64,000 bases of DNA from Vicinamibacteria bacterium. Its GTDB lineage: Bacteria > Acidobacteriota > Vicinamibacteria > Fen-336 > CBDFGD01. Location: contig CBDFGD010000002.1 in the NCBI GenBank assembly GCA_965246965.1, forward strand, positions 1,612,890 through 1,676,889, given 5' to 3'. Shown piece after piece: positions 770-62,768 of this stretch; positions within the stretch are counted from its first letter, which is position 1; every line of letters starts with the position of its first letter. Below the pieces are notes generated by a model. The model made no database searches. It saw only the letters and a list, made by a program, of their open reading frames with translations, and had not been told where the DNA came from. Made by a program: the position numbers and the translations under genes.

Positions 770-2076
770 GCCGGGTCACCGAGGACCCGAACCGATTGAG
801 CCGAGCGGAAGCGCCCTTCCGGGTCCCAACGCCGCCTGACCTCCCGCCACTCCGCGAGGCGCGGCTCCATCGCCGCGAAGTGATCGGGCCGGGTGAACTG
901 GTCCTTGGCGAGGTAGACGCGGCCGCCTTCCCGGATCACGGCCCCATTCAGCGCGTCGACGAGCGACTGAGTGTCGTCGCGAACCGGAATGTCGAGTGCG
1001 ATCGAGATGCCGCGCTTCGGAAACGACAGGAGACCTTCCCCTTCGTCACCACAGTCCTTGATCACACACAGCATCGACGCCCCGCCCCGCCGGCTCAGCA
1101 GCTCGAGGAAGCGGCGGGCGGCATCGCGACCCGCGGCCTTCGGCAGCACGCACTGGTACTGAGCAAAACCGCGCGGCCCGTACATCTTGTTCCAGCCGCC
1201 GATCGCGTCGAGCGGATAGAAGAACTTCTCCGGGTTCATCACGCGTCGACGCACGCCACGCGGATGCACGCCGTAGAGCAGGGCGTTGAAGATCCGGACC
1301 GACCAGCGATCGATGAGCCAACCCGGCAGAACGACCGGCAGCGCCGGGCGTTGCAACGGACCCGGGACGCCGCTCGGGGCCTCGTCCGACGCGGCCCAGC
1401 GGCCGCGCGCCAGGATGCCACGGCCGAGCGCCTTTCCGCGCGAGAGGCAGTCGATCCAGCCCATCGTGTACGGCCAGCCGTCGGCCGACGCCTTGAGAGC
1501 GTCGATGAACGCATCGATGTCCTGGACCCGCTCGCTCTCGACGAGCATCCAGGGCGACGGGATCGTGGCGAGCTTCAGCTCGACCTCGAGGATGGCACCG
1601 GTCAAGCCCATCCCTCCTACCGTTGCGCGGAACAGATCGGTGTTCTCCGTGGGAGAGCATTCCAGCACGCGCCCATCGGCCACCCGCATGCGAAGCCCCT
1701 GGACGTGTCGGCCGACACAGCCGTCGCGATGGTGGTTCTTGCCGTGGACGTCCGCGGCCACCATGCCCCCGAGGGTGATCTGCTGCGTGCCCGGCGTCAC
1801 GGGACTGTAGAAACCGCGGGGTAGGTAGAGACGGTTGAGGTCCCGCAAGGCGAGTCCCGCCTCGGCACGCAGCGTGGCAGTCGGTGAGTGGAACGAGAGG
1901 ATGCGATCCGCCAGCGTCGTCCCGGCGACGATCGGCTGGCCGGGCGGCGGCAGCGAGGAGTCCCCGTAGGACCGCCCCAGACCGCGACACAGCGTCGCGT
2001 CCCGCGTCAGCGCGACGAGGTCCTCGGAGCGCACCTCCCGGCCCGGGAGCGGCACCCGTCCCCAGCCGGAGAGCAT
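766..2076 (-). CDS. dprE1: FAD-dependent oxidoreductase, DprE1-like (decaprenylphosphoryl-beta-D-ribose oxidase homolog)
   Basis: The ORF runs to 2250, but similarity begins at MLSGWGRV (ATG at 2076). Motifs LGRSYGD, PGTQQITLGG, HGKNHH and TVGGMGLTG match the FAD-binding PCMH-type domain and mycobacterial DprE1 as recalled from memory. It is followed directly by the SDR gene. Confidence 0.7.
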   Translation of the reverse strand: MLSGWGRVPLPGREVRSEDLVALTRDATLCRGLGRSYGDSSLPPPGQPIVAGTTLADRILSFHSPTATLRAEAGLALRDLNRLYLPRGFYSPVTPGTQQITLGGMVAADVHGKNHHRDGCVGRHVQGLRMRVADGRVLECSPTENTDLFRATVGGMGLTGAILEVELKLATIPSPWMLVESERVQDIDAFIDALKASADGWPYTMGWIDCLSRGKALGRGILARGRWAASDEAPSGVPGPLQRPALPVVLPGWLIDRWSVRIFNALLYGVHPRGVRRRVMNPEKFFYPLDAIGGWNKMYGPRGFAQYQCVLPKAAGRDAARRFLELLSRRGGASMLCVIKDCGDEGEGLLSFPKRGISIALDIPVRDDTQSLVDALNGAVIREGGRVYLAKDQFTRPDHFAAMEPRLAEWREVRRRWDPEGRFRSAQSVRVLGDPA

Positions 2077-2240
2077 CTCGTCACGAGAGAGGGAGGTCGC
2101 GCCAGGCTCGCGCGCGGCCCTGGTCAGCTCGGCCTGCAAGCGTGTCGCGCGAGGGAGGGGCGCGGCGGCCGTTTGGAGCTTTCGTGCGGCGCCGGCATGG
2201 CGAGAGTGTAGCATTGGGCCGTTTTTCGATAGGAGAACCC

Positions 2241-5200
2241 ATGCGCCCATCGATGCTCAGCGCCGTGCTGCTCGCTTGCCTCGCACTTCCGGCCGGCGCC
2301 CAGGAGGACCAGGAGAAGGAAGAGGAGAAGTGGGACGTCGACAAACCACCGGGCCCGCACTCCTCCGTCGAGATCGACACCGACGAGGGGACGTGGCTCA
2401 GCGTCGACGTCTCCCCGGACGGGAGCGAGATCGCCTTCGATCTGCTCGGCGACATCTACAGGATCCCGATCGAGGGAGGAGACGCCGAAGCCCTGACATC
2501 GGGGGTGGCGTGGGACATGCAACCCCGCTACAGCCGCGACGGAAAGAGCATCGCGTTCACGAGCGACCGCGGCGGCGGCGACAACATCTGGGTCATGGGG
2601 CGCGACGGCTCGGAGGCCGTTACCGAAGAGACGTTCCGGCTGCTCAACAGCCCGGTCTGGACGCCTGACGGCGAGTACCTGATCGCGCACAAGCACTTCA
2701 CGAGCGCGCGCTCGCTCGGCGCCGGCGAGATGTGGCTCTACCACCGATCCGGCGGCGCGGGAGTGCAGCTCACCGAGAAGCCGAACGACCAGAAAGACGC
2801 CGGGCCGCACCTTCCAGTACAACAAGGACTCGAACACGGAGATCTACGTCATCCAGCGGCTCGACCGCGAGACGGGCGAAACGGAGGAGTACATCAGCGG
2901 CCCGGGCGGTTCGATCCGCCCGACGCCTTCGCCCGATGGGAAGTCGCTGGCGTTCGTGCGCCGGATCCGCTTCCAGTCCGTGCTCTTCGTCCAAGACATC
3001 GAGTCGGGTCTGGAGACGCCGATCTATCACGCCCTCGATCGCGACATGCAAGAGACCTGGGCGATTCACGGCGTCTACCCATCGATGGCCTGGACACCGG
3101 ACAGCTCTTCCATCGTGTTCTGGGCGGGCGGGAAGATCCGCCGCGTCGACGTCTCCTCGCACGAGGCTGCGGTCATACCGTTCCGCGTCAAGGCGACGCG
3201 TCGGGTCGCCGAGGCCCTTCGCTATCCGGTCGACGTGGCCCCCGAGAAGTTCCCCGTGCGCATGCTGCGCTGGGTGCAGGTGTCGCCGAGCGGTGACCGC
3301 GTCGTCTATCAGGCGCTCGGACACCTGTACGTGCGCTCGCTGCCGGACGGAACGCCGGAACGGCTGACGTCACAATCTGACCACTTCGAGCACTACCCCT
3401 CGTGGTCGCGTGACGGCAGCCAGATCGTCTACACCACTTGGGACGATGACGAGCTGGGCAGCGTTCGCGTCGTCTCGGCGATCGGCGGCGAGGGTCGCGT
3501 CGTGACGGACCGGAAAGGTCACTATCTGGAGCCGGTCTTCTCGCCCGACGGCGCGACGATCGTCTACCGCCGTGCTGCGTCTCCAGGGTTCATCCGCTCG
3601 CCGCTCTACTCGTCCGACCCAGGCGTCTACCAGGTCGACGCCAGCAGTGGCGTATCGAAGCTCGTGACGAGAAGCGGAGTGCAACCGCACTTCGGGGCCG
3701 CGAGCGACCGTGTCTTCTTGCTGCGTCGCGAGGAAGAGGACAAGCGCTCGCTCGTGAGCATCGAGCTCGACGGCAGCGATGAGCGTTCGCACCTGGGCAG
3801 CGTCAAGGCGACCGAGTACCAGGTCTCGCCCGACGGCAATTGGGTGGCCTTCGGTCACGGCTTCAACGCGTTCATCTCGCCGTTTCCTGCGACGGGCAAG
3901 AGGATCGAGATCGGGCCCGATTCGGAGGCACTTCCGGTGAAGAAGGTCTCCGGCGAGAGCGGCGAGTATCTCCACTGGTCGGGAGACAGCTCGCGCCTGC
4001 ATTGGTCGCTGGGGCCCGAGCTCTACACACGTGAGCTGAAGGACGCGTTCGACTTCCTGCCGGGCGCGCCGGAGGAGCTGCCCGACCCGCCAAGGAGCGG
4101 CGCCCCGATCGGCTTCACGGCGGACACGGATGTGCCGAGCGGTCGCGTCGCCCTCGTCGGAGGGCGCCTCATTACCATGCGCGGCGACGAGGTGATCGAG
4201 GATGGCGTGGTCGTCATCGAGCGGAATCGGATCGTCGCCGTCGGGCCAAGAGCGAGTACCAGCGTTCCGAGCGACGCCGAGACGATCGATGTCGCCGGAC
4301 ACACCGTCATCCCCGGGCTCGTCGACGTTCACTGGCACGGCGTGATCGGCACCCAGGAGTTCATCCCGGAGAGCAACTGGGTGCTCTACGCTGGTCTGGC
4401 GTTCGGTGTCACGACGGCTCACAACCCGTCGTTCGACACGAGCACCATCTTCTCCGGCGCCGAGATGGCGATGGCGGGTCGAGTCGTCTCGCCGCGCATC
4501 TTCTCGACCGGGACGATTCTCTACGGCGCGACCACCGCGTTCACCGCCGAGATCGACAGCCTCGACGATGCACGTTTCCACGTCGGGCGGATGAAGGCCG
4601 TCGGCGCCATCACCGTCAAGAGCTACAACCAGCCGCGGCGCGACCAGCGCCAGCAGGTGATCGCGGCGGCCCGCGAGATGGAGATGATGGTGGTTCCGGA
4701 GGGCGGGTCTCTCTACGAGCACAACATGACCATGGTCGTGGACGGCCACACCGGAATCGAGCACGCGATTCCCGTCGGGGCCATCTACGAGGACACTCTT
4801 CAGCTCTGGGGCGGCAGCGACGTTGGCTACACCCCGACGATCGGAGTCGGCTACGGCGGCCTCAACGGCGAGTCCTACTGGTATGCGAAGACGAACGTGT
4901 GGGAGAACGAGCGGCTGATGGAGTTCGTGCCCCGGCGCGTCGTCGACTCGAGGGCGCGGCGTCGCACACTCGCCCCGGACAATGAGTGGAACCATATGAA
5001 CATCGTGCGCATCGCGAAGGAGCTGACCGACGTCGGTGTCAGCGTCCAGATCGGCGCCCACGGTCAGCGCGAAGGTCTCGCAGCGCACTGGGAACTCTGG
5101 AGCCTCGCCCAGGGAGGCATGACGCCGCTCGAGGTGATCCGCGCAGGGACGCTGAACGGAGCCGAGTACCTCGGACTCGATGGGGACCTTGGCTCCATCG

Positions 5201-5388
5201 AGGTGGGCAAGCTCGCCGATCTCGCGGTGATCGGCGGCAACCCTCTCGAGGACATTCGAGAGACCGAGCGGGTGCGCTACACCGTCCTGAATGGTCGCGT
5301 CTACGACGCCGCCAACATGAACGAGATCGGCAACCACCCGAAAGAGCGCGGCAGTTTCTTCTGGGAGGATATGGACGGCGAGCGTTAG
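2241..5388 (+). CDS. TolB-like beta-propeller + amidohydrolase family protein; apparent +1 frameshift near 2805-2812
   Basis: A signal peptide is followed by repeated WD40-like/TolB-like 'SPDG...' blades and a C-terminal metal-dependent amidohydrolase domain (GLVDVHWHG, HT..EHA). The reading frame switches from frame 0 to frame 1 at about 2808 (…KDAGPH / TFQYNKDSN…). Both parts read as one continuous protein of about 1049 aa. Confidence 0.7.
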
Positions 5389-5426
5389 GGGTCGCTCGGG
5401 TACCGCTCCGGGGCAGGCCACGCTAA

Positions 5427-5458
5427 CCAAGGGCAGCGGTTACCACCGCTGCCCTTGG
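5427..5458. terminator. Perfect 13-bp stem hairpin (CCAAGGGCAGCGG-TTACCA-CCGCTGCCCTTGG) 39 nt after the amidohydrolase stop
   Basis: Perfect inverted repeat read directly from the sequence. It is not followed by a U-tract, so it is a putative rho-dependent or structural terminator. Confidence 0.45.
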
Positions 5459-5478
5459 TATCACATTCACCAAAGAGG
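5456..5478 (+). repeat. 23-bp direct repeat copy 1 (TGGTATCACATTCACCAAAGAGG)
   Basis: Identical 23-mer to 5544-5566. Relatively AT-rich. It overlaps the 3' arm of the hairpin and lies in the intergenic region upstream of the SGNH hydrolase gene. Confidence 0.6.
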
Positions 5479-5543
5479 CCTGCCCTACGCGGCACCACTC
5501 GCTCAGGCTGAACAGATCGCATCGTTCGCCGGCACCGCGCTCC

Positions 5544-5566
5544 TGGTATCACATTCACCAAAGAGG
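5544..5566 (+). repeat. 23-bp direct repeat copy 2 (TGGTATCACATTCACCAAAGAGG)
   Basis: Perfect copy 88 bp downstream of copy 1 and about 55 bp upstream of the start at 5620. It is a candidate regulator-binding or promoter element. Confidence 0.6.
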
Positions 5567-5619
5567 GCCACTCGTCGCGACAGCTCTGGCTTGGGCCGGA
5601 CGAGCCGAGTGTGTGAGGC

Positions 5620-6843
5620 TTGCGCATGAGTCTCGTGCCGCGGCGGGTGCTGGGCAACCTCGTCCTGCTCGTCGTCACAGCCGCGCTCAGTCTCGGCGTG
5701 CTGGAGCTCGGGATGCGAGCGGCTCGGCTGGGGCGAGGGGGTGGCAAAGAGCAGTCGGAAGTACTGCAGTACAACGAGTACGATCCGCTGCTCGGCTGGC
5801 GCAAGACGCCGGGAGCCCGCGTCAGCTACCACCGCCGTGAGTACTCGGTCGAAGTGGCCATCAACAACAAGGGTCTGCGAGACGTCGAGCGTCCCTACGC
5901 GCCGAGCGCCGGATCGAGTCGCATCCTCGCGCTGGGCGATTCGTTCGTCGAGGGCTACACCGTCCGAGCCGACGAGACCGTCACGGCGCAGCTCATGCGA
6001 GAGCTCGCCCGGCCCGGGTGCCTGACCGAGATCATCAACGCCGGAACCGCAGCGTACAGCACCGACCAGGAGCTTCTCTTCTTCCGAAGCGAGGGCATCC
6101 GCTATCAGCCCGAGATCGTGATCGTCTTCTTCTTTTACAACTACATCATCCACAACGATCGGCAGCTCTACTACGGTCGCCCCAAGCCGATCTTTCAGAC
6201 GACCGACGAGGGCATCGAGCTGCATCGGTATCCGCTGCCCCGCGTCAGCCCACCGCCGCCGAGCGGTGAAGCGCCCGGGGAGGCCGGCTCGGCGCTGCTC
6301 GGCTTCGTCCGTAGCCGACTGTATTCGGGAGCGCCGGACCTGCACGACCGTCTCGCGAAGCTGGGGCTCTGGCCCCCGATTCAGGAGCGGGGCGCGAGAT
6401 TGGAGCTGCGCGTCTTCGAAACGCGCGCTATCCCGGACCTGGAAGAGGCGTGGAGCAAGACGGCGGCGATCCTTCGAACACTGCGCGACGACGTCGAGGC
6501 ATCCGGAGCGCAGCTGCTCGTGGCCTACATCCCCAGCCGGATGGAAGTCCACGACGACTCGTGGCGTCTCACGCAGCGCCTCTACGGCTTCGAGCCGGGC
6601 TCATGGGACCGTCGCCGCGTGGCGGAGCGCCTGCTCGCCCTCGGCGAGCGCGATGGCCTCTCCGTCCTGGACCTGACGACCCCGCTGCGGGACGTCGACC
6701 GCGGGCTCATGGGACGCCCCTACTTCGACGACGACGGCCACTGGACCGCGATCGGCCATCGCGCCGCGGCCCAGGCGATCGCCAATCTGCTGAGGCTCGA
6801 GCGATGGCTGGAACCGTGCGAAGCAGGCTCAGCTGGAACGTAG
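5620..6843 (+). CDS. SGNH/GDSL hydrolase family protein (AlgX/AlgJ-like) with N-terminal transmembrane anchor
   Basis: GDSFVEG block I of SGNH hydrolases sits after an N-terminal transmembrane helix. The protein is 407 aa. Confidence 0.65.
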   Translation: MRMSLVPRRVLGNLVLLVVTAALSLGVLELGMRAARLGRGGGKEQSEVLQYNEYDPLLGWRKTPGARVSYHRREYSVEVAINNKGLRDVERPYAPSAGSSRILALGDSFVEGYTVRADETVTAQLMRELARPGCLTEIINAGTAAYSTDQELLFFRSEGIRYQPEIVIVFFFYNYIIHNDRQLYYGRPKPIFQTTDEGIELHRYPLPRVSPPPPSGEAPGEAGSALLGFVRSRLYSGAPDLHDRLAKLGLWPPIQERGARLELRVFETRAIPDLEEAWSKTAAILRTLRDDVEASGAQLLVAYIPSRMEVHDDSWRLTQRLYGFEPGSWDRRRVAERLLALGERDGLSVLDLTTPLRDVDRGLMGRPYFDDDGHWTAIGHRAAAQAIANLLRLERWLEPCEAGSAGT

Positions 6844-8007
6844 TCGCTTCAGTCGCGCCGTCGCCGCGATGCCGACCGCGGGGCCGAGTGCCAGGATGGG
6901 AAAGGCCCAGCGCCAGGAGAACGCGTCGGCCAGCATCGGAACCAGCTGAATGGTCACGATCGTGAGCAGGAACCCGAGCGAGGTCTGAAGCGCGAGCGCC
7001 GTTCCCACCGCGTGGGAAGGCGCTATCTCCGTCACCAGCGCGCTGAATTGGGCGGAGTCGGCGATCACGAGCACGCCCCACCCGAGAGAGACGATCACCA
7101 ATGGCCAGAGCGGGCCGCCGAAGAGGATTCCAGTGAGCAGACAGCAGAGCCCGCTGCCGAGCAGAGCCACCTGCACCAGGCGCTCCCGCCCCCAGCGATC
7201 CGCGAGCCAGCCACCTGCGACACAGCCGACGGCGCCGGCTGCGACGGCGAGAAACGCCACGAGATCCGTCGCGAAGGGCACGCCGCTGGCTGCGGCGCTC
7301 GCCGCCAGGAAGGCAGGCAGCCATGTCCACATGGCGTACAGCTCCCACATGTGACCGAGGTACCCGACCGTCGCCAGTCGGGTCGGACGATGCCGGAGCA
7401 CGATGCCGACCAGCGCCCAGCTGAAGGGTCGGCGCTCGAAAGTATGGGGGCCGTCCCGGTAGCCCGCGCCGATCAAAAGCGCCGCCGCGAAAGCGCCCAG
7501 CGACGTCGCGAGAACGACGGTCTGCAGATCGCCGCCCCCAAGCGAGCGGATCAGGTAAGGCGTCCCCTTGCCGATCGTCAGGGCCCCGACGACGGCGCCG
7601 ATCGCGAGGCCGCGAGCGTCCCTGAACCACGTCGCCGCCATCTTCATCGCGGGCGGATAGACGCCGGCCAGGCAGAAGCCGGTCAAGAAGCGCAGCGTGA
7701 GAGCGCCTTCGTAGCCCGAGGTCGCGAGAAGCGCCAGGTTGGCCAGCGCGGCCATCATCGCGCTCAGCGCGAACAGCCAGCGCGTCGCGATCAGGTCGAC
7801 GAGATTCAGAAGCGCGAGCATCGCCGTGCCGGCGACGAAGCCGATCTGCACGGCGCTCGTGAGAGCAGCGCTCCGCGAGGCGTCGAGGGCCCAGAGCGCC
7901 TGCATGTGCTGCGCGGCGGCACTGGCGCCAAACCACGGCGACATGCCCAGCAGCTCGGCCGTCGCGATCAACCCGAGCGCACGCCAACGACCGTCGTTGC
8001 TGGTCAT
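6829..8007 (-). CDS. MFS transporter
   Basis: About 12 predicted transmembrane helices with a typical MFS composition. Start chosen at the ATG at 8007 (MTSNDGRW…). It is convergent with the SGNH gene and overlaps it by 15 bp. Confidence 0.7.
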   Translation of the reverse strand: MTSNDGRWRALGLIATAELLGMSPWFGASAAAQHMQALWALDASRSAALTSAVQIGFVAGTAMLALLNLVDLIATRWLFALSAMMAALANLALLATSGYEGALTLRFLTGFCLAGVYPPAMKMAATWFRDARGLAIGAVVGALTIGKGTPYLIRSLGGGDLQTVVLATSLGAFAAALLIGAGYRDGPHTFERRPFSWALVGIVLRHRPTRLATVGYLGHMWELYAMWTWLPAFLAASAAASGVPFATDLVAFLAVAAGAVGCVAGGWLADRWGRERLVQVALLGSGLCCLLTGILFGGPLWPLVIVSLGWGVLVIADSAQFSALVTEIAPSHAVGTALALQTSLGFLLTIVTIQLVPMLADAFSWRWAFPILALGPAVGIAATARLKRLRSS

Positions 8008-8183
8008 CCTGATCGCGCAAGCTAGCACGTGGGGCCGCCACGACCCGGTGTTAGGCTGCCCCACCCCGACGCAATGATCCGCCGCGGTTTCCTGTCGCTC
8101 GGTTGCTACGGCTCCGTAGGGAGCTGGTTGCTCGGAGCTCGTCGGACCCAGGCCAGGCGCGCGGGCCAGAACCGAGGAGAGGC

Positions 8184-10589: not shown

Positions 10590-10884
10590 CTGCGCTCGCC
10601 TCGGCCAGCGAGGTGAGATCTCTCCTCTGGTATCGAGTGAAGAGGAGCAGACGGATTCTTCGCTCCAGGCGGAGACGAGCGGTCTCTCAGAATGGCGAGG
10701 GGACGAACTTTCGATCGGGCCAACGGCGATTGACGGATCGTCTCCTCGTCATCCTGAGGCCGGGTCAGTCCCGCACGAGCCGAAGGATCCGCCGGCGAGG
10801 TGATGTGGCCGCCTGCGCTCCTGGGGAACGAGGAGCGGACGGATTCTTCGCTCCAAGCCGAGACGAGCGGTCGCTCAGAGTGAC
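10590..10884. repeat. Intergenic ~190-bp repeat family, locus A (about two tandem copies; inverse orientation relative to locus B)
   Basis: The reverse complement of 10646-10695 and of 10835-10884 matches the 5' ends of the locus B units (GTCATTCTGAGCGACCG…CGAAGAATCCGTCTGC). The internal segment …CTCCTCGTCATCCTGAGGCCGGGTCAG… is also shared. Confidence 0.7.
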
Positions 10885-12445
10885 GAAGCCTTGGCCGTTC
10901 TCTGTGCCTCCGTGACTCTGTGGCTTTCGTTGCGGGCAAAAAGCCACGTCACGTACGTCACGCATGCCAGGGCCGCGACGCTCGTCGCCGTGAACAGCTC
11001 GTCGTACCAACCCGTAAACGCGGGGATGACGCACGAGATGGCCGCGAACGCGAGGAGCGCGACGCCGACACGACGTTCCCGCGACCAGAGCAGGCCGAGG
11101 CAGAGGAAGCCCGAGAAGTAGTAGCAGGTCAGCTCCGACCCGACCGGGATCAGCCCCACGGCCAGGCAGGCCGTCACCCAGTCCTCGCGCCCCCGGATGG
11201 CCCGGGCAAAAAGCACGACGTAGAGGCTGACGGCCAGCCAGTAGAGCACCCGGCGTCTCGCGAAGGTGGAGCGACGGGCTTCCTTCCAGGGTGTGTAGGG
11301 ATCTTGAAGCGACTCGTCCTTGACGATGCGGGCGCGAGTCGCGTGATCGTAGGCGACGACCGTCGGTAGGCCCATGTCGTTCGTCAGCGACGTATCGAGA
11401 TGCAGCCGCGTGTTCCTGGCAAAATCGGTCCAGACGCCCGCGTCCCCGGCCACCCACATCGACGCGGGCACGAGCACGGCCAGCGCGACCAGAGCTCCCA
11501 TCGCGAAGCGTCGGTGTTCGGAGCTGACCATCACCCGCCGTTCGTCCCACATGCGCAGACCTGCCGCCATCCCGATCGCACCCAGAAACACGGCGGGGAA
11601 GACGCGAAGCGTCGCGCTCCACGCGAGCAGCGCCCCGGCCCACCCGTGGCAGCCGCGACGCAGGAAGCAGATCCCGATCACCGCGGCGCTCAGCCAGTCC
11701 TGTCGAAGAAACGACCCGCCGGTCCACCAGAAGCGGGCGGGGTAGTTGGAACCCCAGAAGATCGCGGCGACGCTGGCCGCACGCCACCCGAAGGCCCACC
11801 AGACCGCGATCCACATCACGACGAGCGACAGGGAGTCGATCAGCGCCAGGGCGGTGACGGAGAGCGTGGAAACGGGCGTCAGGTTGGCGAGCGGCGATCC
11901 CGCTACGAGCCAGGCGGGTGTGGCGTTGAAGCCGTGATCCTGCTGCGCTTCCCGCCAGCGCAAGGCCGACATCTGTCCCCTGAACCAGCCGATGTCGGCC
12001 TTGAAGGCCGCCCAGCGCTCGGTCGTGAAACGCGCCCCTCGCAACGGCCGGGGTCGTGGAGCACCGTCTCCGCTGATTCGATCCGGTTTGTCGCCAGGTT
12101 TCGGATCGAGCGCCCGCGCACGTCGTCGGCTCCCAACGCCTCGGCATCGGCCACCGTCGAGCAACGGTACAGGCCCTCGTAGCCGAGCTCGCGGAAGTAC
12201 TTGGCTCCGACGACATAGTGGTACAGCTCCCACCGATGCAGGTAGGTCGAGAAGTGGAACTTGCCGAGATTCCACCAGCAGAGCAGCGCGAAAAAGCCCA
12301 GGACGAGAAGCGCCTTGTCCCACGGGCGGCGGTGGCTCTCGCCCACGCGTGGCTCCCGAAGGACGCCCCATACCGCCAGCGCGACCCCCAGCACCGCCAC
12401 CCCGCCCTTGATCTGATCGAGATGGAGTTGGGTGAGCGGCGCCAT
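10875..12445 (-). CDS. Polytopic integral membrane protein (GT-C-like / DUF-type), apparent frameshift near 12030-12060
   Basis: The N-terminal 180 aa (12445 to about 12040) and the C-terminal roughly 400 aa (about 12060 to 10875) lie in different frames. Both parts are strongly hydrophobic multi-transmembrane sequence. Family assignment is tentative. Confidence 0.45.
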
Positions 12446-12628
12446 CCCCTAAAGCCTGTGTCGAGCGGGCGCTGGCCCAGCCGTTCTCCCGTGTTGGCGG
12501 GCGGCAAGGAGAGCGCCTCCCAGAGCGTGCATTCGTGTCACCTTAAACCATGCGGAGCGCCGCGACCGGGCCGTCGAGCGGCGCATGTTACTCTGGCTCA
12601 TCGGCACTGATTCGGCGGACCTCACTTC

Positions 12629-13384
12629 ATGAGAACGCGCTTCACAACTGCCACGGCGCTCATCCTCACCACGCTCGCCGGAAGCGCCTCGGCGGAGACC
12701 GACCCGACGAAAATCATCGAGCGCGTCGACCGGCTGCTGCGCGGTGATTCGAGCCGTGGGGTGGCCACGATGGAAGTGGCGACCGAGCACTGGAGCCGGA
12801 GCCTGAGTATGGAGGTCTGGTCCCTCGGAACCGACTACTCCCTCGTGCGCATCACGTCCCCTGCCAAGGAGGCCGGAACCGCCACGCTGAAGGCAGACGA
12901 CGACATCTGGAACTACCTGCCGAAGGTCGACCGGACGATCAAGATCCCGGCGTCGATGATGATGGGCGCCTGGATGGGCTCCCACTTCACGAACGACGAT
13001 CTCGTGAAGGACAGCCAGCTGATCGAGGAGTACGACATCACGATCAGCTTCGAAGGGGAGCGTGACGGGACCGAGGTCTGGGAGCTGAGGCTCACTCCAA
13101 AACCCGAGGCGCCTGTGGTCTGGGGGCACGTCGAGTACCAGGTCCGCAAGAAGGACATGATGCCGCTCCAGGCTCGCTACTTCGACGAGGACGGCGGGCT
13201 GGCTCGCACCATGACGTTCAGCGAGTTCCGGGTTCTGGGTGGACGCCTCGTTCCCTCGGTCATGACCTTGCAGCCGGAGGACAGGCCTGCCGAGAGCACG
13301 TCGTTTCGCTACGACGAAATCGAGTTCGACGTCGACCTCGACGAAGGCTTCTTCTCCCTCCGCGCCCTGAAGCGGCGGCGCTAG
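12629..13384 (+). CDS. LolA-like outer-membrane lipoprotein-sorting family protein (secreted)
   Basis: Signal peptide plus a LolA/DUF4292-like fold composition. It is the first gene of an operon with two FtsX permeases and an ABC ATPase. Confidence 0.55.
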   Translation: MRTRFTTATALILTTLAGSASAETDPTKIIERVDRLLRGDSSRGVATMEVATEHWSRSLSMEVWSLGTDYSLVRITSPAKEAGTATLKADDDIWNYLPKVDRTIKIPASMMMGAWMGSHFTNDDLVKDSQLIEEYDITISFEGERDGTEVWELRLTPKPEAPVVWGHVEYQVRKKDMMPLQARYFDEDGGLARTMTFSEFRVLGGRLVPSVMTLQPEDRPAESTSFRYDEIEFDVDLDEGFFSLRALKRRR

Positions 13385-26650: not shown

Positions 26651-27060
26651 TCATTGTGAGATTCCGACTCCGCAGCGTCATTCTGAGTGAGCGCTAGTCC
26701 CCGCTTGGAGGGAAGAATCCGTCTGCTCCTCTTCACTCGATCGTCAGCCGTTTCCACAAAGAGGGGCGGGCGGATCCTTCGGCCCGACCACGACTGACCC
26801 GGACTCAGGATGACGAGGAGTCGATCCGTCAATCGCCATCGCCGCCATCGAAAGCTTCGTCCCCTCGTCATTCTGAGCGACCGATCGTCTCCGCCTGGAG
26901 CGAAGAATCCGTCTGCCCTTCCTCACTTAATCGTCAGCCGTTTCCACAGAGAGGAGCTGGCGGATCCCTCGGCCCGGCCACGACTGAGCCGGCCTCAGGA
27001 TGACGAGGAGTCGATACCGTCGATCGCCGTCGACTTCATCGAAGTTGTGGCGCGTCTGCT
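26651..27060. repeat. Intergenic ~190-bp repeat family, locus B (two tandem units 26677-26866 and 26867-~27060, plus a partial upstream copy)
   Basis: The two units share a GTCATTCTGAGYGAVCG… start, an …AAGAATCCGTCTGC… segment, …CGTCAGCCGTTTCCACA… and …CTCAGGATGACGAGGAGTCGAT…. Its reverse complement is at locus A. Confidence 0.75.
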
Positions 27061-38533: not shown

Positions 38534-38534
38534 C
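38291..38534 (+). repeat. 244-bp direct repeat copy 1 = native 3' end (last 77 codons plus stop) of the giant gene
   Basis: Aligns base-for-base with 40791-41034 at about 93% identity. Confidence 0.85.
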
Positions 38535-38558
38535 CGCCGCAGCAGTGCCGACCGGGGA

Positions 38559-45750: not shown

Positions 45751-47273
45751 GCTAGGAGTCTGCGCGGCAGTAGTTCAGCCCGGGTGTGTCATCGTGCCTT
45801 GTGACCCGAGAGATCATCTTGCCTGGGCTAAACGGCAGTAGTGGGCTCGCGGACGAGTGCTCGCGAGGGAGGACGGGCGGATCCAAGGCCGGGTGGTGGT
45901 CATACCCAGACCATCTTCCGATTGAGTCTCCTGAGGTTGAGCGCCAAGCAAACGAGATTCCACTCGGCGCTGGTTTTCTCAAGCCCTCGAAGGCTGAAGG
46001 ATTGGAAACCAAGCACAGCCTTGATCCATCCGAATGGCGGTTCGCCGAGTTTGCGCCGCTTGTACCACTTGCGACCACGTTTCGTCTTGAGCTTCGCCTT
46101 CATGCGGAGCGTCGCTTCGAGCTTCGAATTCGACGTTGGTGGAGAGTCTTTCTTTTCTCTCCCCAGAGCCACGAAACCGTCGATTCCGGTACGTTCCAAG
46201 TGCAGTAGGTTCTTTTCGGAACGGTAGCCGGCATCGGCCAGGGCACGCTTGGGCTTCTCACCGGTGTTGGCTTGAGCCGTTTTCAGCATCGGCTCGAGCT
46301 GACCGACATCCGCAGCGTTGTTGGTCAACCCGGTCGCAACGATCAGCTGCGATTTCTCGTCGACGGCGGCTTGGGCATTGAAGCACTGCTGGTAGCCACT
46401 CGAATCCTTCATGATGCGGCTTTCGGGATCGGTGAAGTTGTCCTGCTTCTTGTCCGGAGGTACGCCAAATCTCCTTTTGAACTTTGGCCCTCGCTTCGAT
46501 TCCTTGTCATCCCCTGGCCGACGTCCGGCCTGCTGATCTTCTTCCTTCTGACGGGCCTCCAGACGTGCCTTCGCTGCTTGGATTTTCTTGAGCCGTGAAT
46601 CTCGGCGCGCCAGCTCTTCTGGCAGTTCGTCGCCACGAAAATCAGGACCAAACTCGACGTCTTCCGCAGCATCTTCTTGTTTCGCAAGAGCGGTGATAGC
46701 CCGAATCTCTCGACGGAGCTGTTTCTCCGTTTTCTTCATACGCTCGTAGCTCATCGCCTTGTGCTTGCTGGCATTCGCCTTGACCTTCGTTCCATCCAGA
46801 ATCAACGTCCCAAGCTTGACCAAACCCACTTCTTGAGCCAGACGCACGACTTGGACGAATACAGATCGAAACTGGGACAAATGGTCACAACGGAAATCAC
46901 TGATCGTCCGGTGTGCCGGGAAATTGCCTCCGCTCAAATAACGGTATGCGACATCCTCTTCCAGCTTCTTCGCGATCCCACGAGACGAAAACGTCCCTGT
47001 CGCATAGCCGTAGATCAGAACCTTCAGCATCATTCGAGGATCGAATCGTCGGTTCCGACGTCCATCGCCCTCGTAGCGCTCGTAGAAAGCACGCACATCC
47101 ATCGCCTCCACCGTATCCGAGATGAAAAACGAAAGATGACCCTCCGGAAGCCAGTCTCGTGGATTCGACGGAAACAAACTCGATTGGTCAGGACTGTACG
47201 GACGGAAACTCGTTCCCATAACTTCAAAAACGCTCATTCACCCGATTTCGTTCCTGCCGCGCAGACTCCTAGC
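45751..47273 (-). mobile_element. IS1182-family insertion sequence, copy 1 (1523 bp)
   Basis: Perfect 17-bp terminal inverted repeats GCTAGGAGTCTGCGCGG / CCGCGCAGACTCCTAGC. Single intact transposase ORF. About 99% identical to copy 2, which lies in inverted orientation. Confidence 0.85.
45900..47237 (-). CDS. IS1182-family (DDE_Tnp_1 / DUF772) transposase, intact
   Basis: 445 aa. Conserved N-terminal block (…LIYGYATGTFSSRGIA…RYLSGG…) and DDE region. Confidence 0.85.
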   Translation of the reverse strand: MSVFEVMGTSFRPYSPDQSSLFPSNPRDWLPEGHLSFFISDTVEAMDVRAFYERYEGDGRRNRRFDPRMMLKVLIYGYATGTFSSRGIAKKLEEDVAYRYLSGGNFPAHRTISDFRCDHLSQFRSVFVQVVRLAQEVGLVKLGTLILDGTKVKANASKHKAMSYERMKKTEKQLRREIRAITALAKQEDAAEDVEFGPDFRGDELPEELARRDSRLKKIQAAKARLEARQKEEDQQAGRRPGDDKESKRGPKFKRRFGVPPDKKQDNFTDPESRIMKDSSGYQQCFNAQAAVDEKSQLIVATGLTNNAADVGQLEPMLKTAQANTGEKPKRALADAGYRSEKNLLHLERTGIDGFVALGREKKDSPPTSNSKLEATLRMKAKLKTKRGRKWYKRRKLGEPPFGWIKAVLGFQSFSLRGLEKTSAEWNLVCLALNLRRLNRKMVWV

Positions 47274-47274
47274 G

Positions 47275-48126
47275 CTCGAAAAAGACCCTGGATTCGCCCT
47301 GGCGTACACCGGCCTTGCGGAAATATGGGGAGCGCGCATGAACTGGGAACAGACGCCGCCGAGCGTTGGCATGCCCAAAGTGAGGGAGTTGGCGCTCCAG
47401 GCCATCGCTCTCGACGACTCGCTCGCCGAAGCTCACAACCTGTTGGCGAAGGCCTTCTACTACGGGGATTGGGACTGGCCGGCGGCCGAGCGGGAGTTCC
47501 GGCGAGCCATCGAGCTCAACCCCAACTATCCCTTCGCGCGCATGAACTACTCGTTGCTCCTGGGTTCCTCCAAACGCAACGAAGAAGGGATGGAACAGAT
47601 CGAGAGAGCCGTCGAATTGGACCCCCTCAATCTTCTTTGGAGAACGGGTCAGGGGTGGCAATTCATGATCTCGGATCGCTTTGGCGAGGCGATCGACGTT
47701 TTTCGGGAGACGCTGTCCGTAGGCCCCGTCATGCCAGCCCAACACTTTCTCTGGGCATCTTTGCGGCACGAAGGGAGGTTGGACGAGGCGTGGGCCGAGG
47801 GGAAGAAGACGTTCGTCCTCAGACGCGATCCGGAGGTCGTGGAAGCCTTGGACACGGGCTATCCGGAGTCGGGCTACGAGGGCGCGATGCACAAGGCGGC
47901 CGAGATCCTGGAAGATCGGTCGACGCGGGGGTACGTACAGGCGAGCATGATCGCACGGCTCTACGCCCACGCCGGGGAGGACGATCAGGCGATGGACTGG
48001 CTGCAAAGGGCGTACGAGGAGCGCGACATTATGATGACGCAGCTCGGGGTGGATCCGGACTGGGCCAGCCTCCGCGCCGACCCACGGTTTCGTGATCTCC
48101 TGGAGCGTATCGGGATTCCACAGTAG
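47275..48126 (+). pseudogene. C-terminal TPR-repeat fragment of a Ser/Thr kinase gene disrupted by IS insertion and inversion
   Basis: The frame is open from the IS boundary. …LEKDPGFALAYTGLAEIW… plus several 34-aa TPR-like repeats. It joins in-frame to the kinase fragment at 58728 once the IS is removed. Confidence 0.7.
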
Positions 48127-48179
48127 CCGAGGATCGACCCGTGACGATGGCGGCCCCAGGGAGAAAGGCAGGGAATCGC

Positions 48180-50547: not shown

Positions 50548-52352
50548 GTGCATCGCCGTGACGCGTCGATCACACTCGGCGCCAGCCGCGCACGCGATCG
50601 CCGTCGACCTGGGCTTCAAGAAGCCGTCAGACGAAGCGTTCGATCGATCGCCCGGCTCGTGACCCGCAGTCCGACAGCTGTCCCGTCCAGCGCGGCGCGC
50701 CGTTGGGTCTACGCGCTATTGGCTATAGGGGTGCTGTTGCGACTCGCGCTGCTCGGGCGAGACCTCCCCTACTACGCCGTCGACGAGAACGACGTCGTCG
50801 AGCAGACGTACATCTTTCTAGCTGGGGATTTGCGCCCATCCTTCTTCAGCTACGGTCCGCTGGTCAGCTACCTCCTGGCCGGCCTTTGCGCGCTCGGCTG
50901 GGGAGTCATGAGTGTCGTCGAGGGCTGGCATCTCTCGGACGTGATCTATCGGGCAGTCTTCGAGCCCACGCCGTTCTACGCCGCGGCACGGCTGCTTCAC
51001 GCCTCGGCGGACGTCGCCGCCGTGGCGCTCGCCGCTCGTCTGGGGGCGCGCCACGTCAGCGGCCCGACGGGCTGGGCAATCCTGGGCCTCGGCTCGGCGC
51101 CATTGCTCAGCCTCAACACCGACTTCACGATCGGCAACGACACCTTCCAGGGCTTGCTCGCATTGGCCGCCCTCGGGTTCGTCGGAAAGAAGGATCGAGC
51201 TCCGAATCGGGCCGTCGCATTCGCCGGTGCTGCGGCGGGCCTGTCTCTCGCGGTCAAGCCGCTGCAGGGGTTGCTGGTGATGCCCGCGCTCCTCCTGGCC
51301 ATCGTGATTCCATCAGCAGCCGAGTCGCGCCGCGCGGGATGGCGTTCCGTAGCCGCTTCCGCGAAGCTCCTGGCGGTCTTCGGCGCCTCTCTGGTCGGGA
51401 GTCATGCGGTGGCGAACCCGTACTCGGTCCTCGAGTTCGGCCGGTTCTGGCGAGAGAACGCCGGCTGGATCGAGCGGACGGCCCCCTCCACCGGGTCGGG
51501 GTGGCATTTCGGCTGGTGGCTCGATCTGGCCGGCTGGCCGCTCGCTCTCTTCGCCGCCGTCGCCGTCGCGGCCGGGTTCACCCTCGTCCGCAACACCGCG
51601 CCGCGCGCGTTGCTGCTCTACGTCCTGACTGTCGTCGGTGTCTATCTCTTCGTCGGCGTTCGCCCCTATTGGTACAACGCCGTGCTGCCGGCGGTTCTGG
51701 TCCTGTGCGGAGCGCTGATCGCGAAGTTGTCGGGTCGCAGCGGCTGGCGGTCGGCCGACGTGGCGATCGTGCTGGGCTCGGTGCTCGCCGCCGTGCCGCT
51801 CGCCAACTCCGCCGGCGAGGCCTGGCGGGCCTGGTCGCCGGAGCCATCTCTCGAGCGGCGGCCCGACCGAGCCGCGCAGGTTTGGATCGAGGAGCGCTCC
51901 CCTCCGGCAGCCGCCTATTGGTCGTGGGACGCTACGGGCAAGGGGCGCCGCGCCTGGTGGCAGAGACGCCCAAGGTGCACGGGGTGTGGGCCGACCACTT
52001 CATGTACGGTCGCGGATCCAGCCGCAAATGGAACGACGTGTTCCGCACGGCCTACAGGCGACATCGCCATAGCGGAGCTCCGCTGTACTGGATTACGAAC
52101 GTGCGGCGCGACTACACCGATCGCTGGCCGGATCCCGTGGTGGTGGAGCGGATGCACGAAGTCCCGCCCGCCCTGGCCCGAATCGCGAATGCCCGCTACA
52201 TCGTCACGGCGTCCTCGTCGCGTTTCGTCGGGCGTTGGGAGGGTCGGAGCGACGTGCGGCTCCTCGCGACCTTCACCGCGGAGCCCGGGGCCCGCGCCGA
52301 GAGCGAAGTGAAGATCTTCGAACTGGTCGCATCCGAAGACGAGCCTCGATGA
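50548..52352 (+). CDS. GT-C superfamily membrane glycosyltransferase (family 39 / ArnT/PMT-like), apparent frameshift near 51850-51920
   Basis: Multiple transmembrane helices with the loop …YYAVDENDVVEQTYIFLAG… of a DE-containing GT-C type. The C-terminal roughly 140 aa continue in another frame (…LLVVGRYGQGAPRLV…). Start uncertain. Confidence 0.45.
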
Positions 52353-52391: not shown

Positions 52392-52823
<432 letters not shown>

Positions 52824-57203: not shown

Positions 57204-58727
57204 GCTAGGAGTCTGCGCGGCAGGAACGAAATCGGGTGAATGAGCGTTTTTGAAGTTATGGGAACGAGTTTCCGTCCGTACAGTCCTGACCAATCGAGTT
57301 TGTTTCCGTCGAATCCACGAGACTGGCTTCCGGAGGGTCATCTTTCGTTTTTCATCTCGGATACGGTGGAGGCGATGGATGTGCGTGCTTTCTACGAGCG
57401 CTACGAGGGCGATGGACGTCGGAACCGACGATTCGATCCTCGAATGATGCTGAAGGTTCTGATCTACGGCTATGCGACAGGGACGTTTTCGTCTCGTGGG
57501 ATCGCGAAGAAGCTGGAAGAGGATGTCGCATACCGTTATTTGAGCGGAGGCAATTTCCCGGCACACCGGACGATCAGTGATTTCCGTTGTGACCATTTGT
57601 CCCAGTTTCGATCTGTATTCGTCCAAGTCGTGCGTCTGGCTCAAGAAGTGGGTTTGGTCAAGCTTGGGACGTTGATTCTGGATGGAACGAAGGTCAAGGC
57701 GAATGCCAGCAAGCACAAGGCGATGAGCTACGAGCGTATGAAGAAAACGGAGAAACAGCTCCGTCGAGAGATTCGGGCTATCACCGCTCTTGCGAAACAA
57801 GAAGATGCTGCGGAAGACGTCGAGTTTGGTCCTGATTTTCGTGGCGACGAACTGCCAGAAGAGCTGGCGCGCCGAGATTCACGGCTCAAGAAAATCCAAG
57901 CAGCGAAGGCACGTCTGGAGGCCCGTCAGAAGGAAGAAGATCAGCAGGCCGGACGTCGGCCAGGGGATGACAAGGAATCGAAGCGAGGGCCAAAGTTCAA
58001 AAGGAGATTTGGCGTACCTCCGGACAAGAAGCAGGACAACTTCACCGATCCCGAAAGCCGCATCATGAAGGATTCGAGTGGCTACCAGCAGTGCTTCAAT
58101 GCCCAAGCCGCCGTCGACGAGAAATCGCAGCTGATCGTTGCGACCGGGTTGACCAACAACGCTGCGGATGTCGGTCAGCTCGAGCCGATGCTGAAAACGG
58201 CTCAAGCCAACACCGGTGAGAAGCCCAAGCGTGCCCTGGCCGATGCCGGCTACCGTTCCGAAAAGAACCTACTGCACTTGGAACGTACCGGAATCGACGG
58301 TTTCGTGGCTCTGGGGAGAGAAAAGTAAAGACTCTCCACCAACGTCGAATTCGAAGCTCGAAGCGACGCTCCGCATGAAGGCGAAGCTCAAGACGAAACG
58401 TGGTCGCAAGTGGTACAAGCGGCGCAAACTCGGCGAACCGCCATTCGGATGGATCAAGGCTGTGCTTGGTTTCCAATCCTTCAGCCTTCGAGGGCTTGAG
58501 AAAACCAGCGCCGAGTGGAATCTCGTTTGCTTGGCGCTCAACCTCAGGAGACTCAATCAGAAGATGGTCTGGGTATGACCACCACCCGGCCTTGGATCCG
58601 CCCGTCCTCCCTCGCGAGCACTCGTCCGCGAGCCCACTACTGCCGTTTAACCCAGGCAAGATGATCTCTCGGGTCACAAGGCACGATGACACACCCGGGC
58701 TGAACTACTACCGCGCAGACTCTTAGC
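57204..58727 (+). mobile_element. IS1182-family insertion sequence, copy 2 (1524 bp; inverted relative to copy 1)
   Basis: Same inverted repeats, with the right repeat carrying a T for C (…GACTCTTAGC). One extra T at 58326 relative to copy 1. Confidence 0.85.
57240..58578 (+). pseudogene. IS1182-family transposase, frameshifted (1-nt insertion at 58326 creates an in-frame TAA)
   Basis: ORFs 57240-58328 and 58216-58578 together equal the copy-1 transposase. GAGAAAAGTAAAGACTC here versus GAGAAAAGAAAGACTC in copy 1. Confidence 0.75.
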
Positions 58728-60280
58728 TCGAAGTACTCCCTGGCCCTCTCGACCTGATCGGGGTTCAAGCTGTAGAAGTGGAAAAGGCCCTTGAGATAGT
58801 CATCGTAGGCTTGGGGGTCGACTGCGTCGGCCTCGCTCAGCCGATTCTCTTCGTTGGGTGTCAGCTTGGCCTGGATCTCGCGGGCGACCGCCCGGGCGAC
58901 CTCACTCTGCAACGCCAGCAGGTCACCCACGTCGCGCATATAGGTGCGCGCCCAGAGGTGACGATCGGTCGGGGCGTGGACGAGCTGGGCGGTGATCCGC
59001 ACTCGGTCACCCAACCGGGCCGCCGAGCCCTCGATTACGGCTTCGACGTCGAGCTCCGAGGCGATTTCCGGCAGGCTCTTGTCTCTTGCTCCTTTGTACT
59101 GCATCACCGAGGTCCGCGAGATCACCCGCAGTGAGCTGATCTGGGCGAGATCGGCGCTCAGTGCCTCGGTCATCCCGTCCGCGAAGTACGCCTGGTTCGG
59201 GTCTCCGGAGAGGTTCTGGAGCGGCAGGACCGCCAGCGATCGAATCGCCGGCAGGGCGAGCTCGGTGGCAAACGGCTCCTCGGCACCTGGCGACCTGAGA
59301 GCCGTCCAGCCCACCAGCCCGCCGATGACGGCCACGGCGACGAGCCCTACCATCCACCGAACACCGGTTCGTCGTCTCGCTCCGACTCCCCTGGTTGCCC
59401 CCTGCAACCGCGTCTCGGGCTCCCCGCGGGTGGTGAGCTGCTGGCGAATCTCGTCGACATGCTGCGGCCGTTCGTCCGGGTCCTTCTCGAGACAGCGCCT
59501 GACGAGCTCGTCCAAATAGCCGGGCACCGACGGTTTGAGCTCTCCCAAAGGCTGCGGCTGATCCCGAAGAACAGCCGCGAGGAGGTCCGCCGCGCTCCCA
59601 CCGGCGAACGGCCGGCGGCCGCTCAGCATCTCGTAGAAGATCACGCCCAGGCTGAACAGGTCCGAGCGCTGGTCCACGGGCTTGCCCTGCGCCTGCTCCG
59701 GGCTCATGTAAGTCGACGTGCCCAAGACCTGGCCGTCCCTGGTCAGCGCTTCGGTGGTTTCGGTCGCCCCGCTTCCCGCCTCCATTCGTCGCTGCTTGGC
59801 GAGCCCGAAGTCGAGGACCTTCAGCCGCCCGGTGTCGGTGACCATGACGTTGCGGGGCTCGAGATCCCGGTGGGTGATCCCCTCGGCGTGGGCGGCGGCG
59901 AGAGCGTCAGTCAAGGGAACTGCGATCTCCATGAAGTCGTCGATGCCCATGCCGCCGCCGGGGATCAGCTCGGTGAGTGTCGAACCCTCGACGAGCTCGG
60001 TCGCCAAGAACCGGACTCCGTCGGCTTCTTCGATGGAATAGATGGTGAGGATGTTCGGGTGATTCAGCGCGGCGAGGGCTCGGGCCTCACGTGCGAAGCG
60101 GCTCAGCCGATTGGCGTCGCCAAAGAGCTTCTCCGGCAGCACCTTGATGGCCACCTCGCGCCCGAGCTTGGTGTCCTCCGCCCGGAAGACAACTCCCATG
60201 CCGCCCTGTCCGAGCTTGGCAGTGATCCGGAAGTGGGCAAGGCTTCTGCCGATCACGAAACGAAACTCGGCCGGTTGCAC
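58728..60280 (-). pseudogene. Ser/Thr protein kinase (Hanks-type), N-terminal portion; 3' end severed by IS1182 copy 2
   Basis: GQGGMGVVF, VAIK, HRDLEPRN, DFGLAK and SPEQ subdomains. A transmembrane helix and the start of a TPR region (…AREYFE|) end exactly at the IS boundary. Continuation at 47275. Confidence 0.75.
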
Positions 60281-60405
60281 ACCGATGACCTCGACGTCGC
60301 GGAAGTGCCAGACCGCACGACCGTCAATGTACGCGCGAGAAGGACCCCACCGGTGGCAGCGCCCAGGTCACCGGCGGCTTGCGTCGAGCCAGGACCTCGC
60401 TCTCC

Positions 60406-62768
60406 TCACCAACTGAAGGTCGTGTGCGCCAAGGTGCGTCGCCCCAGAAGATCACTACCGAAAGCCTGGTAGTGCTTTTCGTTCAGCAGATTGGTGACGT
60501 TGACGCCAACGGACCAACGGTCGTCGACTGCGTAGTTTGCGGTCGCGCTCACCAGGTTGTAGGAAGGCACGGGCCCCATCCAGACGCCGCTGCCCCAGAA
60601 GAAACTGTCCACCCAGCGATACCGCATGGAGACATCGAACTTCGGCTGCGAGTACGTGAAGCCGAAGGCCAGCTTGTGCTCCGGCGTGTTGGGGAACAGC
60701 GTTCCGCCGACGCCCTCGTCCTTCACCTCGAAATCGAACCACGAGTACGTGAGATCGAGCAGCCACCCGGTTCCGATCGCGTAGCTGACGGCGACGTCGA
60801 CACCCTGGACGTCCACCCGGCCGGCGTTGGTGAAGCCGAGCGGAATGAAGACCGGGCTGCCGTCGACGTCACTCAGGAGGAAGGGGAAGAACGGTCCCAC
60901 CTCGTTTCGGAGGGCTGCCAGTACGGGGCCGGGGTCCGGATGTCCCGGCGGCGGCTGGTAGGGAGCGAACCTGGAGTTGAACGTGCCAAACGGATCGAGC
61001 AGGGGTTGGGTGATGAAGTTCTGAATCTCGTTGCGATAGTAGTCGATCGTCACGAACGCCCGGTCGCTGATGATGACCCGGTACCCGGCCTCGATGCTCG
61101 TGACGCTTTCGACGTCGAGATCTTCGTTGCCAACCAGGCGAACCGAGGTCGGCGTCTCGAAGCCGCAGGAGACGCCGAAAGGCGTGCACTGGCTGGCTTC
61201 CACTGCCGTGAGGTCGACGGCTGGGAGCGGCCCTTGTGGCGTCGGAAGGAAGAACGGCAGGTCGAGAAAGAAGTCCCCGTAGGTCGGCGCCTGGAAGGCG
61301 TCGTTGTAGGTCAGGCGCAGAGTGTGGCGCGGAGTGATCCCCCAGACCAGGCCGGCCTTGACCGATGCTCGCCCATCGAACAGCGTGCCCTCGTCCCAGC
61401 GCGCCGCGACCACGAGCCGGACGTCGTAGGGGAACGCGTAGTCAGCCTGGCCGAAGACCGCTTTCGAGTCAGCCTCGAGGGGGCCGAACCAGCGCGTGAC
61501 CGATGTCGTCAGTGCGGTAGGAGGCACCACCAACCAACCGCAGCCGCCCAAACTCGTCATGGGCGAGGATCTCCAGATGTCGGCGTTGCGAGTCGTCGAA
61601 GAAGCTTCCGCCGGTGGACAGGTCGACGAACTCGGGAGCCTGACGATCGGTGTAGTAGGCGCGAGCCTCGAAGCGCCGGCTGGTGAAGTCGAGCCGCAGC
61701 CATTTCTGCTCGATGGGCTCGGTCAAGTTGAAGCGCCCTGGAAAGGCTACCGCAACAGGGTTCCCACTGAGTTTTTGAAAGCCGGGCTCCAGAGTCAGCA
61801 GGGAGCCGCTCTCGAAGTGCTTGTCGAGGCGCACGGCGATGGTTCCAGACCCGACGCCGTTGTCGGACAGGGGCAGCAGCTCCGTAGGCAGTCCGGCGTA
61901 CTCCGTAGACTCGTGGCGGGAACGGGTGAAGTACTCGCCGTCCTGGTAGTTCCCCACCAGCTTGAAGAACCACCCGGCGCCGAAGCTGGAAGCCCAGCGC
62001 AGGTCGCCACGTAGGAAGGCGGGGTCGCCCGCGGTCAACCTGAGGCTGCCACCCCTGGCTGTCCCTGGGGCGCTTGGTGGTCAGGTTCAAGACCCCGTTG
62101 AAAGCGTTGGCCCCGTAAAGTGAGGAACTGGGCCCCTTGACCAACTCCGCACTCTCCAGATCCATGAGGTTGCGCGGGAAGTACTCCTGGAACGCGGCGA
62201 AGGGTACCAATTGGTCCACCCCGTCGAGGAAGACCTGGACGCGTCGATTGCTGTAACCGTTGAAGCCGCGGGCGTTCACCTCGGACAAGAAGCCCGAGGC
62301 GTTGACCACATGGATCCCTGGAGCGGACTCCAGCAGCTTCGGAATCTCCCCGGCTCCCGACTCGCGGGCGATGGCTGCTTCGCTCAGCGTGGCGACCGCG
62401 GCCGGAGCATCGATCGCGCGCTCGACCCGGCGCGACGCCGCCACGGTGATGTCTTCGAAGAAGCGTTGCTGCCAGTCGACCGTCTCCTCGATCGTGCGTG
62501 TCTCGCCTTCCTTCACCTCGATCTCGGGAACGGAGCGCGTCTGCCCACCAAGGCTCAGGGTGACCGAGTAGACGCCTTCGGGAACCCGCTCCAAGAGGAA
62601 CGAGCCGGCTCGATCGGTGATTCTGCCCGCTCCAGTCGGGTCGAGCGTCACTTCTACACCGGCGACCCCTCGGCCCGCCTCGTTGAGAACACTTCCTTCC
62701 AGCCGGCCCCTGGCCAGGGCCAGGTTGCTCCCCGACAGCCAGACGATCAGGACCAGCGCTACTCTCAT
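60406..62768 (-). pseudogene. TonB-dependent receptor with at least two frameshifts
   Basis: N-terminal carboxypeptidase-regulatory-like plus plug domain in frame A (62768 to about 62050). Barrel segments in frame B (62038 to 61469) and frame C (61560 to 60406, ending …TTFSW). Junctions near 62045 and 61520. Confidence 0.7.

Follow-up and report, generated by a model that had tools for sequence, protein, structure and literature searches.

Six frame breaks in five genes of a 64-kb stretch of acidobacterial DNA (64,000 nucleotides, here called the window) are, on balance, probably the result of genuine and recent pseudogenisation in an IS-active, Thermoanaerobaculia-like genome. In such a genome, accessory genes, mostly those of the cell envelope, would have been inactivated recently by ordinary mutations in an uncultured acidobacterium. 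All six breaks shift the reading frame, and insertions and deletions are mixed among them, with sizes of -59, +2, -1, +1, -2 and +1. We infer that the small indels exist in cells rather than in the consensus only. The earlier note had left the choice between pseudogenisation with IS activity and systematic indel error. The former is supported by the structural decay in the window and by the intact orthologs in relatives, whereas systematic single-base or homopolymer error does not fit the spectrum of the lesions.

The window has a G+C content of ~67%, and its proteins are nearest to those of metagenome-assembled genomes of Thermoanaerobaculia (Acidobacteriota), with the closest relatives sharing 84 to 93% amino acid identity with it. 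The relatives compared were a sister species represented by three assemblies (L001/L084, L085 and L086) and further lineages (L087, L088/L089, L002 and L090). A scan of genome contigs for a genome of the same species gave no match closer than 67%, and a metagenome scan with a conserved 34-mer gave a single distant homolog, which was intact. Frame breaks were mapped by three-frame translations, a codon-usage Viterbi path over six frames, a GC3 frame plot and ortholog alignments. Over the whole window, the Viterbi map and the GC3 plot revealed same-strand frame switches without a gene boundary at ~2797, 12034, 51943, 61501 and 62053, as well as the end of the ORF in the second IS1182 copy at 58311-58328, and no additional unexplained frame break was found in the window by these two methods. 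Indeed, translations, Viterbi map and ortholog alignments agree that a frame break is present at every site named by the earlier note. The orthologs of the amidohydrolase, receptor, glycosyltransferase-like and membrane genes in relatives are intact and read in a single frame (the membrane ortholog in L084), and the lesions are absent from the relatives. The junction of the flotillin and large ATPase genes at 33010 was considered as an in-frame stop but rejected, since it is an ordinary gene boundary. An Rfam search gave no match. The coordinates of the broken genes, their lesions and the insertion sequences are collected in Table 1.

Table 1. Broken genes, lesions and IS1182-family elements in the window
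Feature	Coordinates	Strand	Basis
TolB-like beta-propeller (PD40/Tricorn) plus amidohydrolase gene, now a pseudogene	2241..5388	+	Translations, ortholog alignments
Junction of the 59-nt deletion; CCGG microhomology common to both breakpoints	2800..2803	+	DNA and protein alignments
Multi-pass membrane protein gene, function unassigned, frame-broken	10875..12445	-	Alignments, Viterbi map
Two extra nt (GT on the gene strand) between GGGCGC and TTCACG	12030..12031	-	Gap relative to L084, L086 and L088
IS1182-family copy 1, intact 445-aa transposase, inverted relative to copy 2	45751..47273	-	Pfam, alignment
C-terminal TPR part of the kinase-TPR gene, adjoins IS1182 copy 1	47274..48126	+	ORF map
Membrane glycosyltransferase-like gene, frame-broken	50659..52352	+	Weak PMT_2 match, below the cutoff of Pfam
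One nt missing (GAGGAGC^GCTCCCC)	51895..51896	+	Homologs
IS1182-family copy 2, decayed	57204..58727	+	Alignment to copy 1
Ser/Thr kinase (N-terminal) part of that kinase-TPR gene, interrupted by IS1182 copy 2	58728..60336	-	ORF map
TonB-dependent receptor gene (CarboxypepD_reg, Plug, beta-barrel), over three frames	60406..62768	-	Domain matches, alignments
Two nt missing	61487..61488	-	Five homologs
One extra G: GGGG here, GGG in the ortholog of L002, flanks identical	62052..62055	-	Alignment

The product of the amidohydrolase gene has Tricorn/PD40 propeller domains followed by Amidohydro_1, in agreement with the precomputed Pfam domains of its homologs. The gene is split between two successive frames, with 189 N-terminal codons in the first and 860 C-terminal codons in the second: reading begins with a signal peptide at 2241, runs to ...KDAGP(H) and continues in the next frame from TFQYNKDSN... 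to 5388. Its orthologs in L084, L086, L087, L088 and L089 are intact and have 1070 to 1071 amino acids, and apart from the deletion the product is 87% identical to P0001 over its whole length. The earlier note had ascribed the break to one nucleotide skipped near 2808. The frame break is real, but the lesion is a deletion of 59 nt with its junction at 2800-2803 and a loss of ~20 residues. According to the DNA alignment, the 59 nt absent in the window are kept at all five relative loci (L084, L086, L087, L088 and L089). In the protein alignment, all homologs share ~20 conserved residues (EPAVSPDGRYVYYSQDTTPG..) that the window lacks, and in a tblastn search with the amidohydrolase ortholog, residues 191 to 207 were without a match in the window. 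It would therefore be wrong to repair the frame by a single base: the 20 conserved residues would still be absent, and with them a propeller blade segment. The 59-nt deletion is very likely a real mutation.

At the junction, the sequence is AAAGACGCCGGCGAG...(59 nt)...GACACGACCCCGGGCCGC in the relatives but AAAGACGCCGGGCCGC in the window. The breakpoints sit in an imperfect 8-bp direct repeat, GACGCCGG / GACCCCGG (GAC(G/C)CCGG motifs, 59 bp apart), of which one copy remains at the junction, with a perfect microhomology of 4 bp (CCGG, 2800-2803). Because the breakpoints lie in this imperfect direct repeat and CCGG is retained, replication slippage or microhomology-mediated deletion is the likely cause of the loss, as judged from the anatomy of the junction. 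By either route, the gene would have lost 59 bp between the two GAC(G/C)CCGG motifs, which would have removed one PD40 blade segment and shifted the frame. Translation from the native start and signal peptide would then stop out of frame at 3296. Replication slippage is known to delete DNA between short direct repeats, as in the classical lacI-type spontaneous deletions. The loss seen here is like these in that its endpoints lie in a short repeat, imperfect and of 8 bp, with one copy left, but it differs from them in that the end product alone is seen and that the perfect microhomology is merely 4 bp.

Four small indels affect the membrane, glycosyltransferase-like and receptor genes. In the membrane gene, whose ortholog in L084 encodes 498 amino acids, the two frames meet at ...PGRCEGR and FTTERW.... 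A loss of 1 nt in the T run at 12030 together with an extra codon was disfavoured as an explanation; since the C-x3-F spacing is kept in nine out of ten homologs of the membrane protein, an insertion of 2 nt at 12030-12031 is favoured. Between the membrane gene and a TP_0789-like gene, the window has ~180 bp (12445-12629) at the site where L084/L086 and L088 carry a gene for a 317-aa AraC-type regulator, and the AraC gene is absent from the window. The homologs of the glycosyltransferase-like gene all read EER[L/I/V]PSGS, with no length change at the site of the missing nucleotide, and the ortholog P0242 is intact (567 amino acids). The public gene call P0241 continues for 130 codons in the wrong frame past this break. 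Directly downstream of the broken gene lies an IS110-family remnant (52392-52820) that has retained the C-terminal domain of Transposase_20 only; in L090, a different gene, for 333 amino acids, is found there. The receptor gene, with an intact ortholog of 781 amino acids (P0121), carries two lesions. The second of them, at 61487/61488, could be described as an extra C in a C run combined with the loss of a codon, but this was disfavoured because the spacing is invariant in the homologs: the interval from DDIGH to KA is 11 residues in all five, and therefore a deletion of 2 nt is more parsimonious.

Two IS1182-family elements of 1523 nt (copy 1) and 1524 nt (copy 2) are present in the window. 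The family is identified by a transposase with DUF772 and DDE_Tnp_1 domains and by terminal inverted repeats, with the ends GCTAGGAGTCTGCGCGG and GCTAAGAGTCTGCGCGG. Copy 1 was used as the reference for lesions in copy 2. The alignment of the two copies confirmed the extra T that had been placed exactly at 58326 in the transposase of copy 2; it lies in GAGAAAAG^AAAG, outside any homopolymer, and leads to a TAA stop. Copy 2 also differs from copy 1 by four transitions (58559, 58650, 58710 and 58723), and the extra T and the four substitutions are all found within the last 400 nt. The differences between the copies are real divergence between resolved repeats, and the decayed copy is likely to reflect real mutation.

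The two copies also mark the ends of a rearrangement. The kinase ORF (58728-60336) extends into the end of copy 2, the TPR ORF begins exactly at the end of copy 1 (47274), and the two halves face away from each other beside the inverted IS copies. Joining 58728 to 47274 gave one continuous ORF of ~830 codons, and the homologous 705-aa protein of L001 aligns unbroken across this junction. The restored ORF and the unbroken alignment argue that a kinase-TPR gene was interrupted by the IS and that a 9.9-kb segment (47274-57203) was inverted. In the sequence of events that we propose, IS1182 would have inserted into the kinase-TPR gene, and recombination between the inverted copies would then have split the halves of the gene. 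We have little doubt that the split kinase is a real mutation.

Homopolymers in the window number 433 (4 nt), 94 (5 nt), 10 (6 nt) and 2 (7 nt). The frame breaks avoid all 12 that have at least 6 nt, and the lesions are not concentrated in the longest runs. The sole lesion that clearly lies in a run is the change from 3 to 4 nt at 62052-62055. Moreover, half of the six lesions (-59, +2 and -2) are not single-base changes. The description of the breaks as single-base disruptions therefore holds for 51895/51896 (-1), 62052-62055 (+1 G) and 58326 (+T) but not for 2800-2803, 12030-12031 and 61487/61488, and the placement of several breaks at short G or C runs is clear for 62055 only. Systematic error is a poor fit, given that half of the lesions involve more than one base, that the longest homopolymers have been spared and that the extra T stands outside any homopolymer in an IS copy that also carries substitutions.

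Other remnants and repeats were found in the window. In addition to the IS110 remnant, the truncated genes reported previously included a histidine-kinase stub and a kinase fragment, and both were recovered: the ORF at 29711-30166 contains the C-terminal half of an HATPase_c domain only and adjoins intact pyrimidine biosynthesis genes, and the 5'-truncated kinase fragment from 63730 onward begins in mid-domain. A remnant of an ArsR gene, also reported, was not found in the window. In an IS3-type element (42332-43503), orfA (HTH_Tnp_1, weak) overlaps orfB (rve integrase core) with a -1 frame relation. This is the only other same-strand overlap in the window and is normal for the IS3-type family; a classical A-AAA-AAG slippery site was not seen in 42540-42640. 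Short intergenic repeats of 60 to 150 nt with 85 to 92% identity occur in direct and inverted copies at 10632-10796 and 26676-27015 and may be a small mobile or regulatory repeat. A direct repeat of 249 nt with 92% identity (38291-38539 and 40791-41039) connects the 3' end of a gene for an 1832-aa ATPase with the end of an ORF 2.5 kb downstream, which suggests a partial duplication. Finally, ~530 nt on the minus strand downstream of a DUF1501 gene (53986-54513) have coding-like codon usage, with a C7 run at 54208; this region had no Pfam match and is a candidate for either a separate gene or a shifted C terminus.

Decay is also seen in the relatives. In L088 (11724-14680), an IS1182-family element that encodes a 500-aa transposase has split the ortholog of the membrane gene; the same membrane gene has thus been knocked out independently by an IS in a sister species. 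In L086 (~8224; 7700-8221 in L084), a deletion of 524 nt has removed the 3' ends of convergent GDSL-lipase and MFS genes. Since the membrane gene of L088 was broken independently by an IS and L086 carries the 524-nt deletion, gene loss is common in the clade. L085 belongs to the same strain as L084 and L086 (99.9% identity). In 7 kb (1473-8094), it has seven private +1 insertions relative to L084 and L086, some of them outside homopolymers, and these split three genes (adh_short, amidohydrolase and MFS). These insertions probably arose as consensus errors in a long-read metagenome contig of low coverage and, as such, indicate that related assemblies of this type are not free of +1 errors in the consensus. 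Comparison of the multi-megabase L086 with L084 revealed no small indels over 21 kb, an agreement that only bounds the error rate at roughly 1 per 7 kb or fewer.

The dN/dS ratio of the amidohydrolase gene was 0.15 between the window and L084 or L088 and 0.149 between two intact relatives, and that of the membrane gene was 0.18, which is inside the range of intact neighbours (0.07 to 0.27). In relative-rate tests of the four broken genes, the lineage-specific changes numbered 28 against 34 in the amidohydrolase, 48 against 39 in the glycosyltransferase-like protein, 33 against 20 in the receptor (p = 0.07) and 19 against 9 in the membrane protein (p = 0.06); none of these tests, in which control genes were without outgroups, was significant (p = 0.06 to 0.45). 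Relaxed selection after inactivation was thus not detected by dN/dS or by relative-rate tests. The broken genes have been under selection for nearly all their history. Since both dN/dS and codon usage are normal, the lesions are either very recent or artefactual, and both fit equally well.

The normal substitution pattern bears on the rival that survives best: the 59-nt deletion and the IS events would be real, but the four or five small indels would be consensus errors of a long-read assembly, and the genes would be intact in the organism. We regard this as unlikely, though it has to be taken seriously. It would account for broken genes without relaxed selection, and L085 demonstrates how seven private +1 insertions can split three genes, also in non-homopolymer contexts. 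The contig names of the relatives are of a type that we take to be made by the long-read metagenome assembler metaMDBG, and five small indels in 64 kb are within the range generally expected for a moderately covered nanopore-only assembly. In one project, metaMDBG was used with HiFi reads (PMC12166358), and nanopore soil metagenomes were reported to need frameshift correction (PMC12818350). However, two of the five small lesions are of 2 nt and insertions are mixed with deletions, whereas the errors of L085 are all +1. Also, the longest homopolymers are untouched, and the extra T is found in an IS copy that has four substitutions as well. Furthermore, the single 5.1-Mb contig implies good coverage, and a comparable sister contig of 6.5 Mb is free of small indels over 21 kb.

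Considerably less probable is a consensus of mixed strains, in which the lesions would be real alleles of different or minority haplotypes and no single cell would have all of them. The source is apparently an unannotated environmental genome, as its proteins bear neither names nor accessions, and close strains of the sister species differ by the 524-nt deletion, but no direct sign of heterogeneity was seen. Functional breaks, that is, programmed ribosomal frameshifting, transcriptional slippage or phase-variable contingency loci, are extremely improbable: although one receptor break (62052-62055) lies in a G run, surface proteins are typical phase-variable genes and the IS3-type element (42332-43503) shows the two-ORF arrangement usual for such elements, the orthologs are single-frame, the runs have at most 4 nt, no slippery heptamer was seen and the focal break removes 20 conserved residues, so that neither a slippery site or long repeat nor a frame structure conserved in relatives was found.

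We therefore return to recent pseudogenisation. The four small indels that affect the membrane, glycosyltransferase-like and receptor genes vary in size and direction, have no link to homopolymer length and stand in a decaying context; for these reasons they are, as far as the DNA can tell, more likely to be real than spurious. In addition to the loss of 59 bp and the inversion, these indels (+2, -1, -2 and +1) would have broken further genes, and one IS1182 copy would have decayed by the extra T and the four transitions.

Frameshift artefacts in long-read assemblies were reportedly described by Watson and Warr in 2019. Like these, the window has isolated 1-nt indels that split conserved genes, and L085 is a clear example; here, however, changes of more than one base make up half of the lesions, no relation to the length of homopolymers is seen and unambiguous structural mutations are found alongside. 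Whatever their origin, the gene calls of the contig should not be taken at face value, as is evident from P0241, of which 130 codons are read in a wrong frame. If frameshifts were corrected automatically by single bases, the amidohydrolase would be "repaired" in error to a protein short of 20 conserved residues.

Shigella, Burkholderia mallei and Sodalis are recently niche-restricted bacteria with pseudogene accumulation and IS expansion. The window is like their genomes in having frameshifted accessory and envelope genes, IS-split genes, an inversion and remnants within 64 kb, but here one 64-kb window is seen, and dN/dS is without long-term relaxation. Gene decay in an IS-rich genome is a well-known and ordinary process and not new. 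It is rather doubtful that the lesions are not only real but also non-random and that they mark an IS-active, uncultured Thermoanaerobaculia lineage that has only just entered reductive evolution or niche restriction. If this were true, surface and envelope functions would be shed within a short evolutionary time, namely, a TonB-dependent receptor, two membrane proteins (one of them glycosyltransferase-like), a secreted TolB-like amidohydrolase and a membrane kinase. Provided that the lesions are real, the window would show, on a small scale, gene loss and IS-driven rearrangement of very recent date in a little-known class of acidobacteria.
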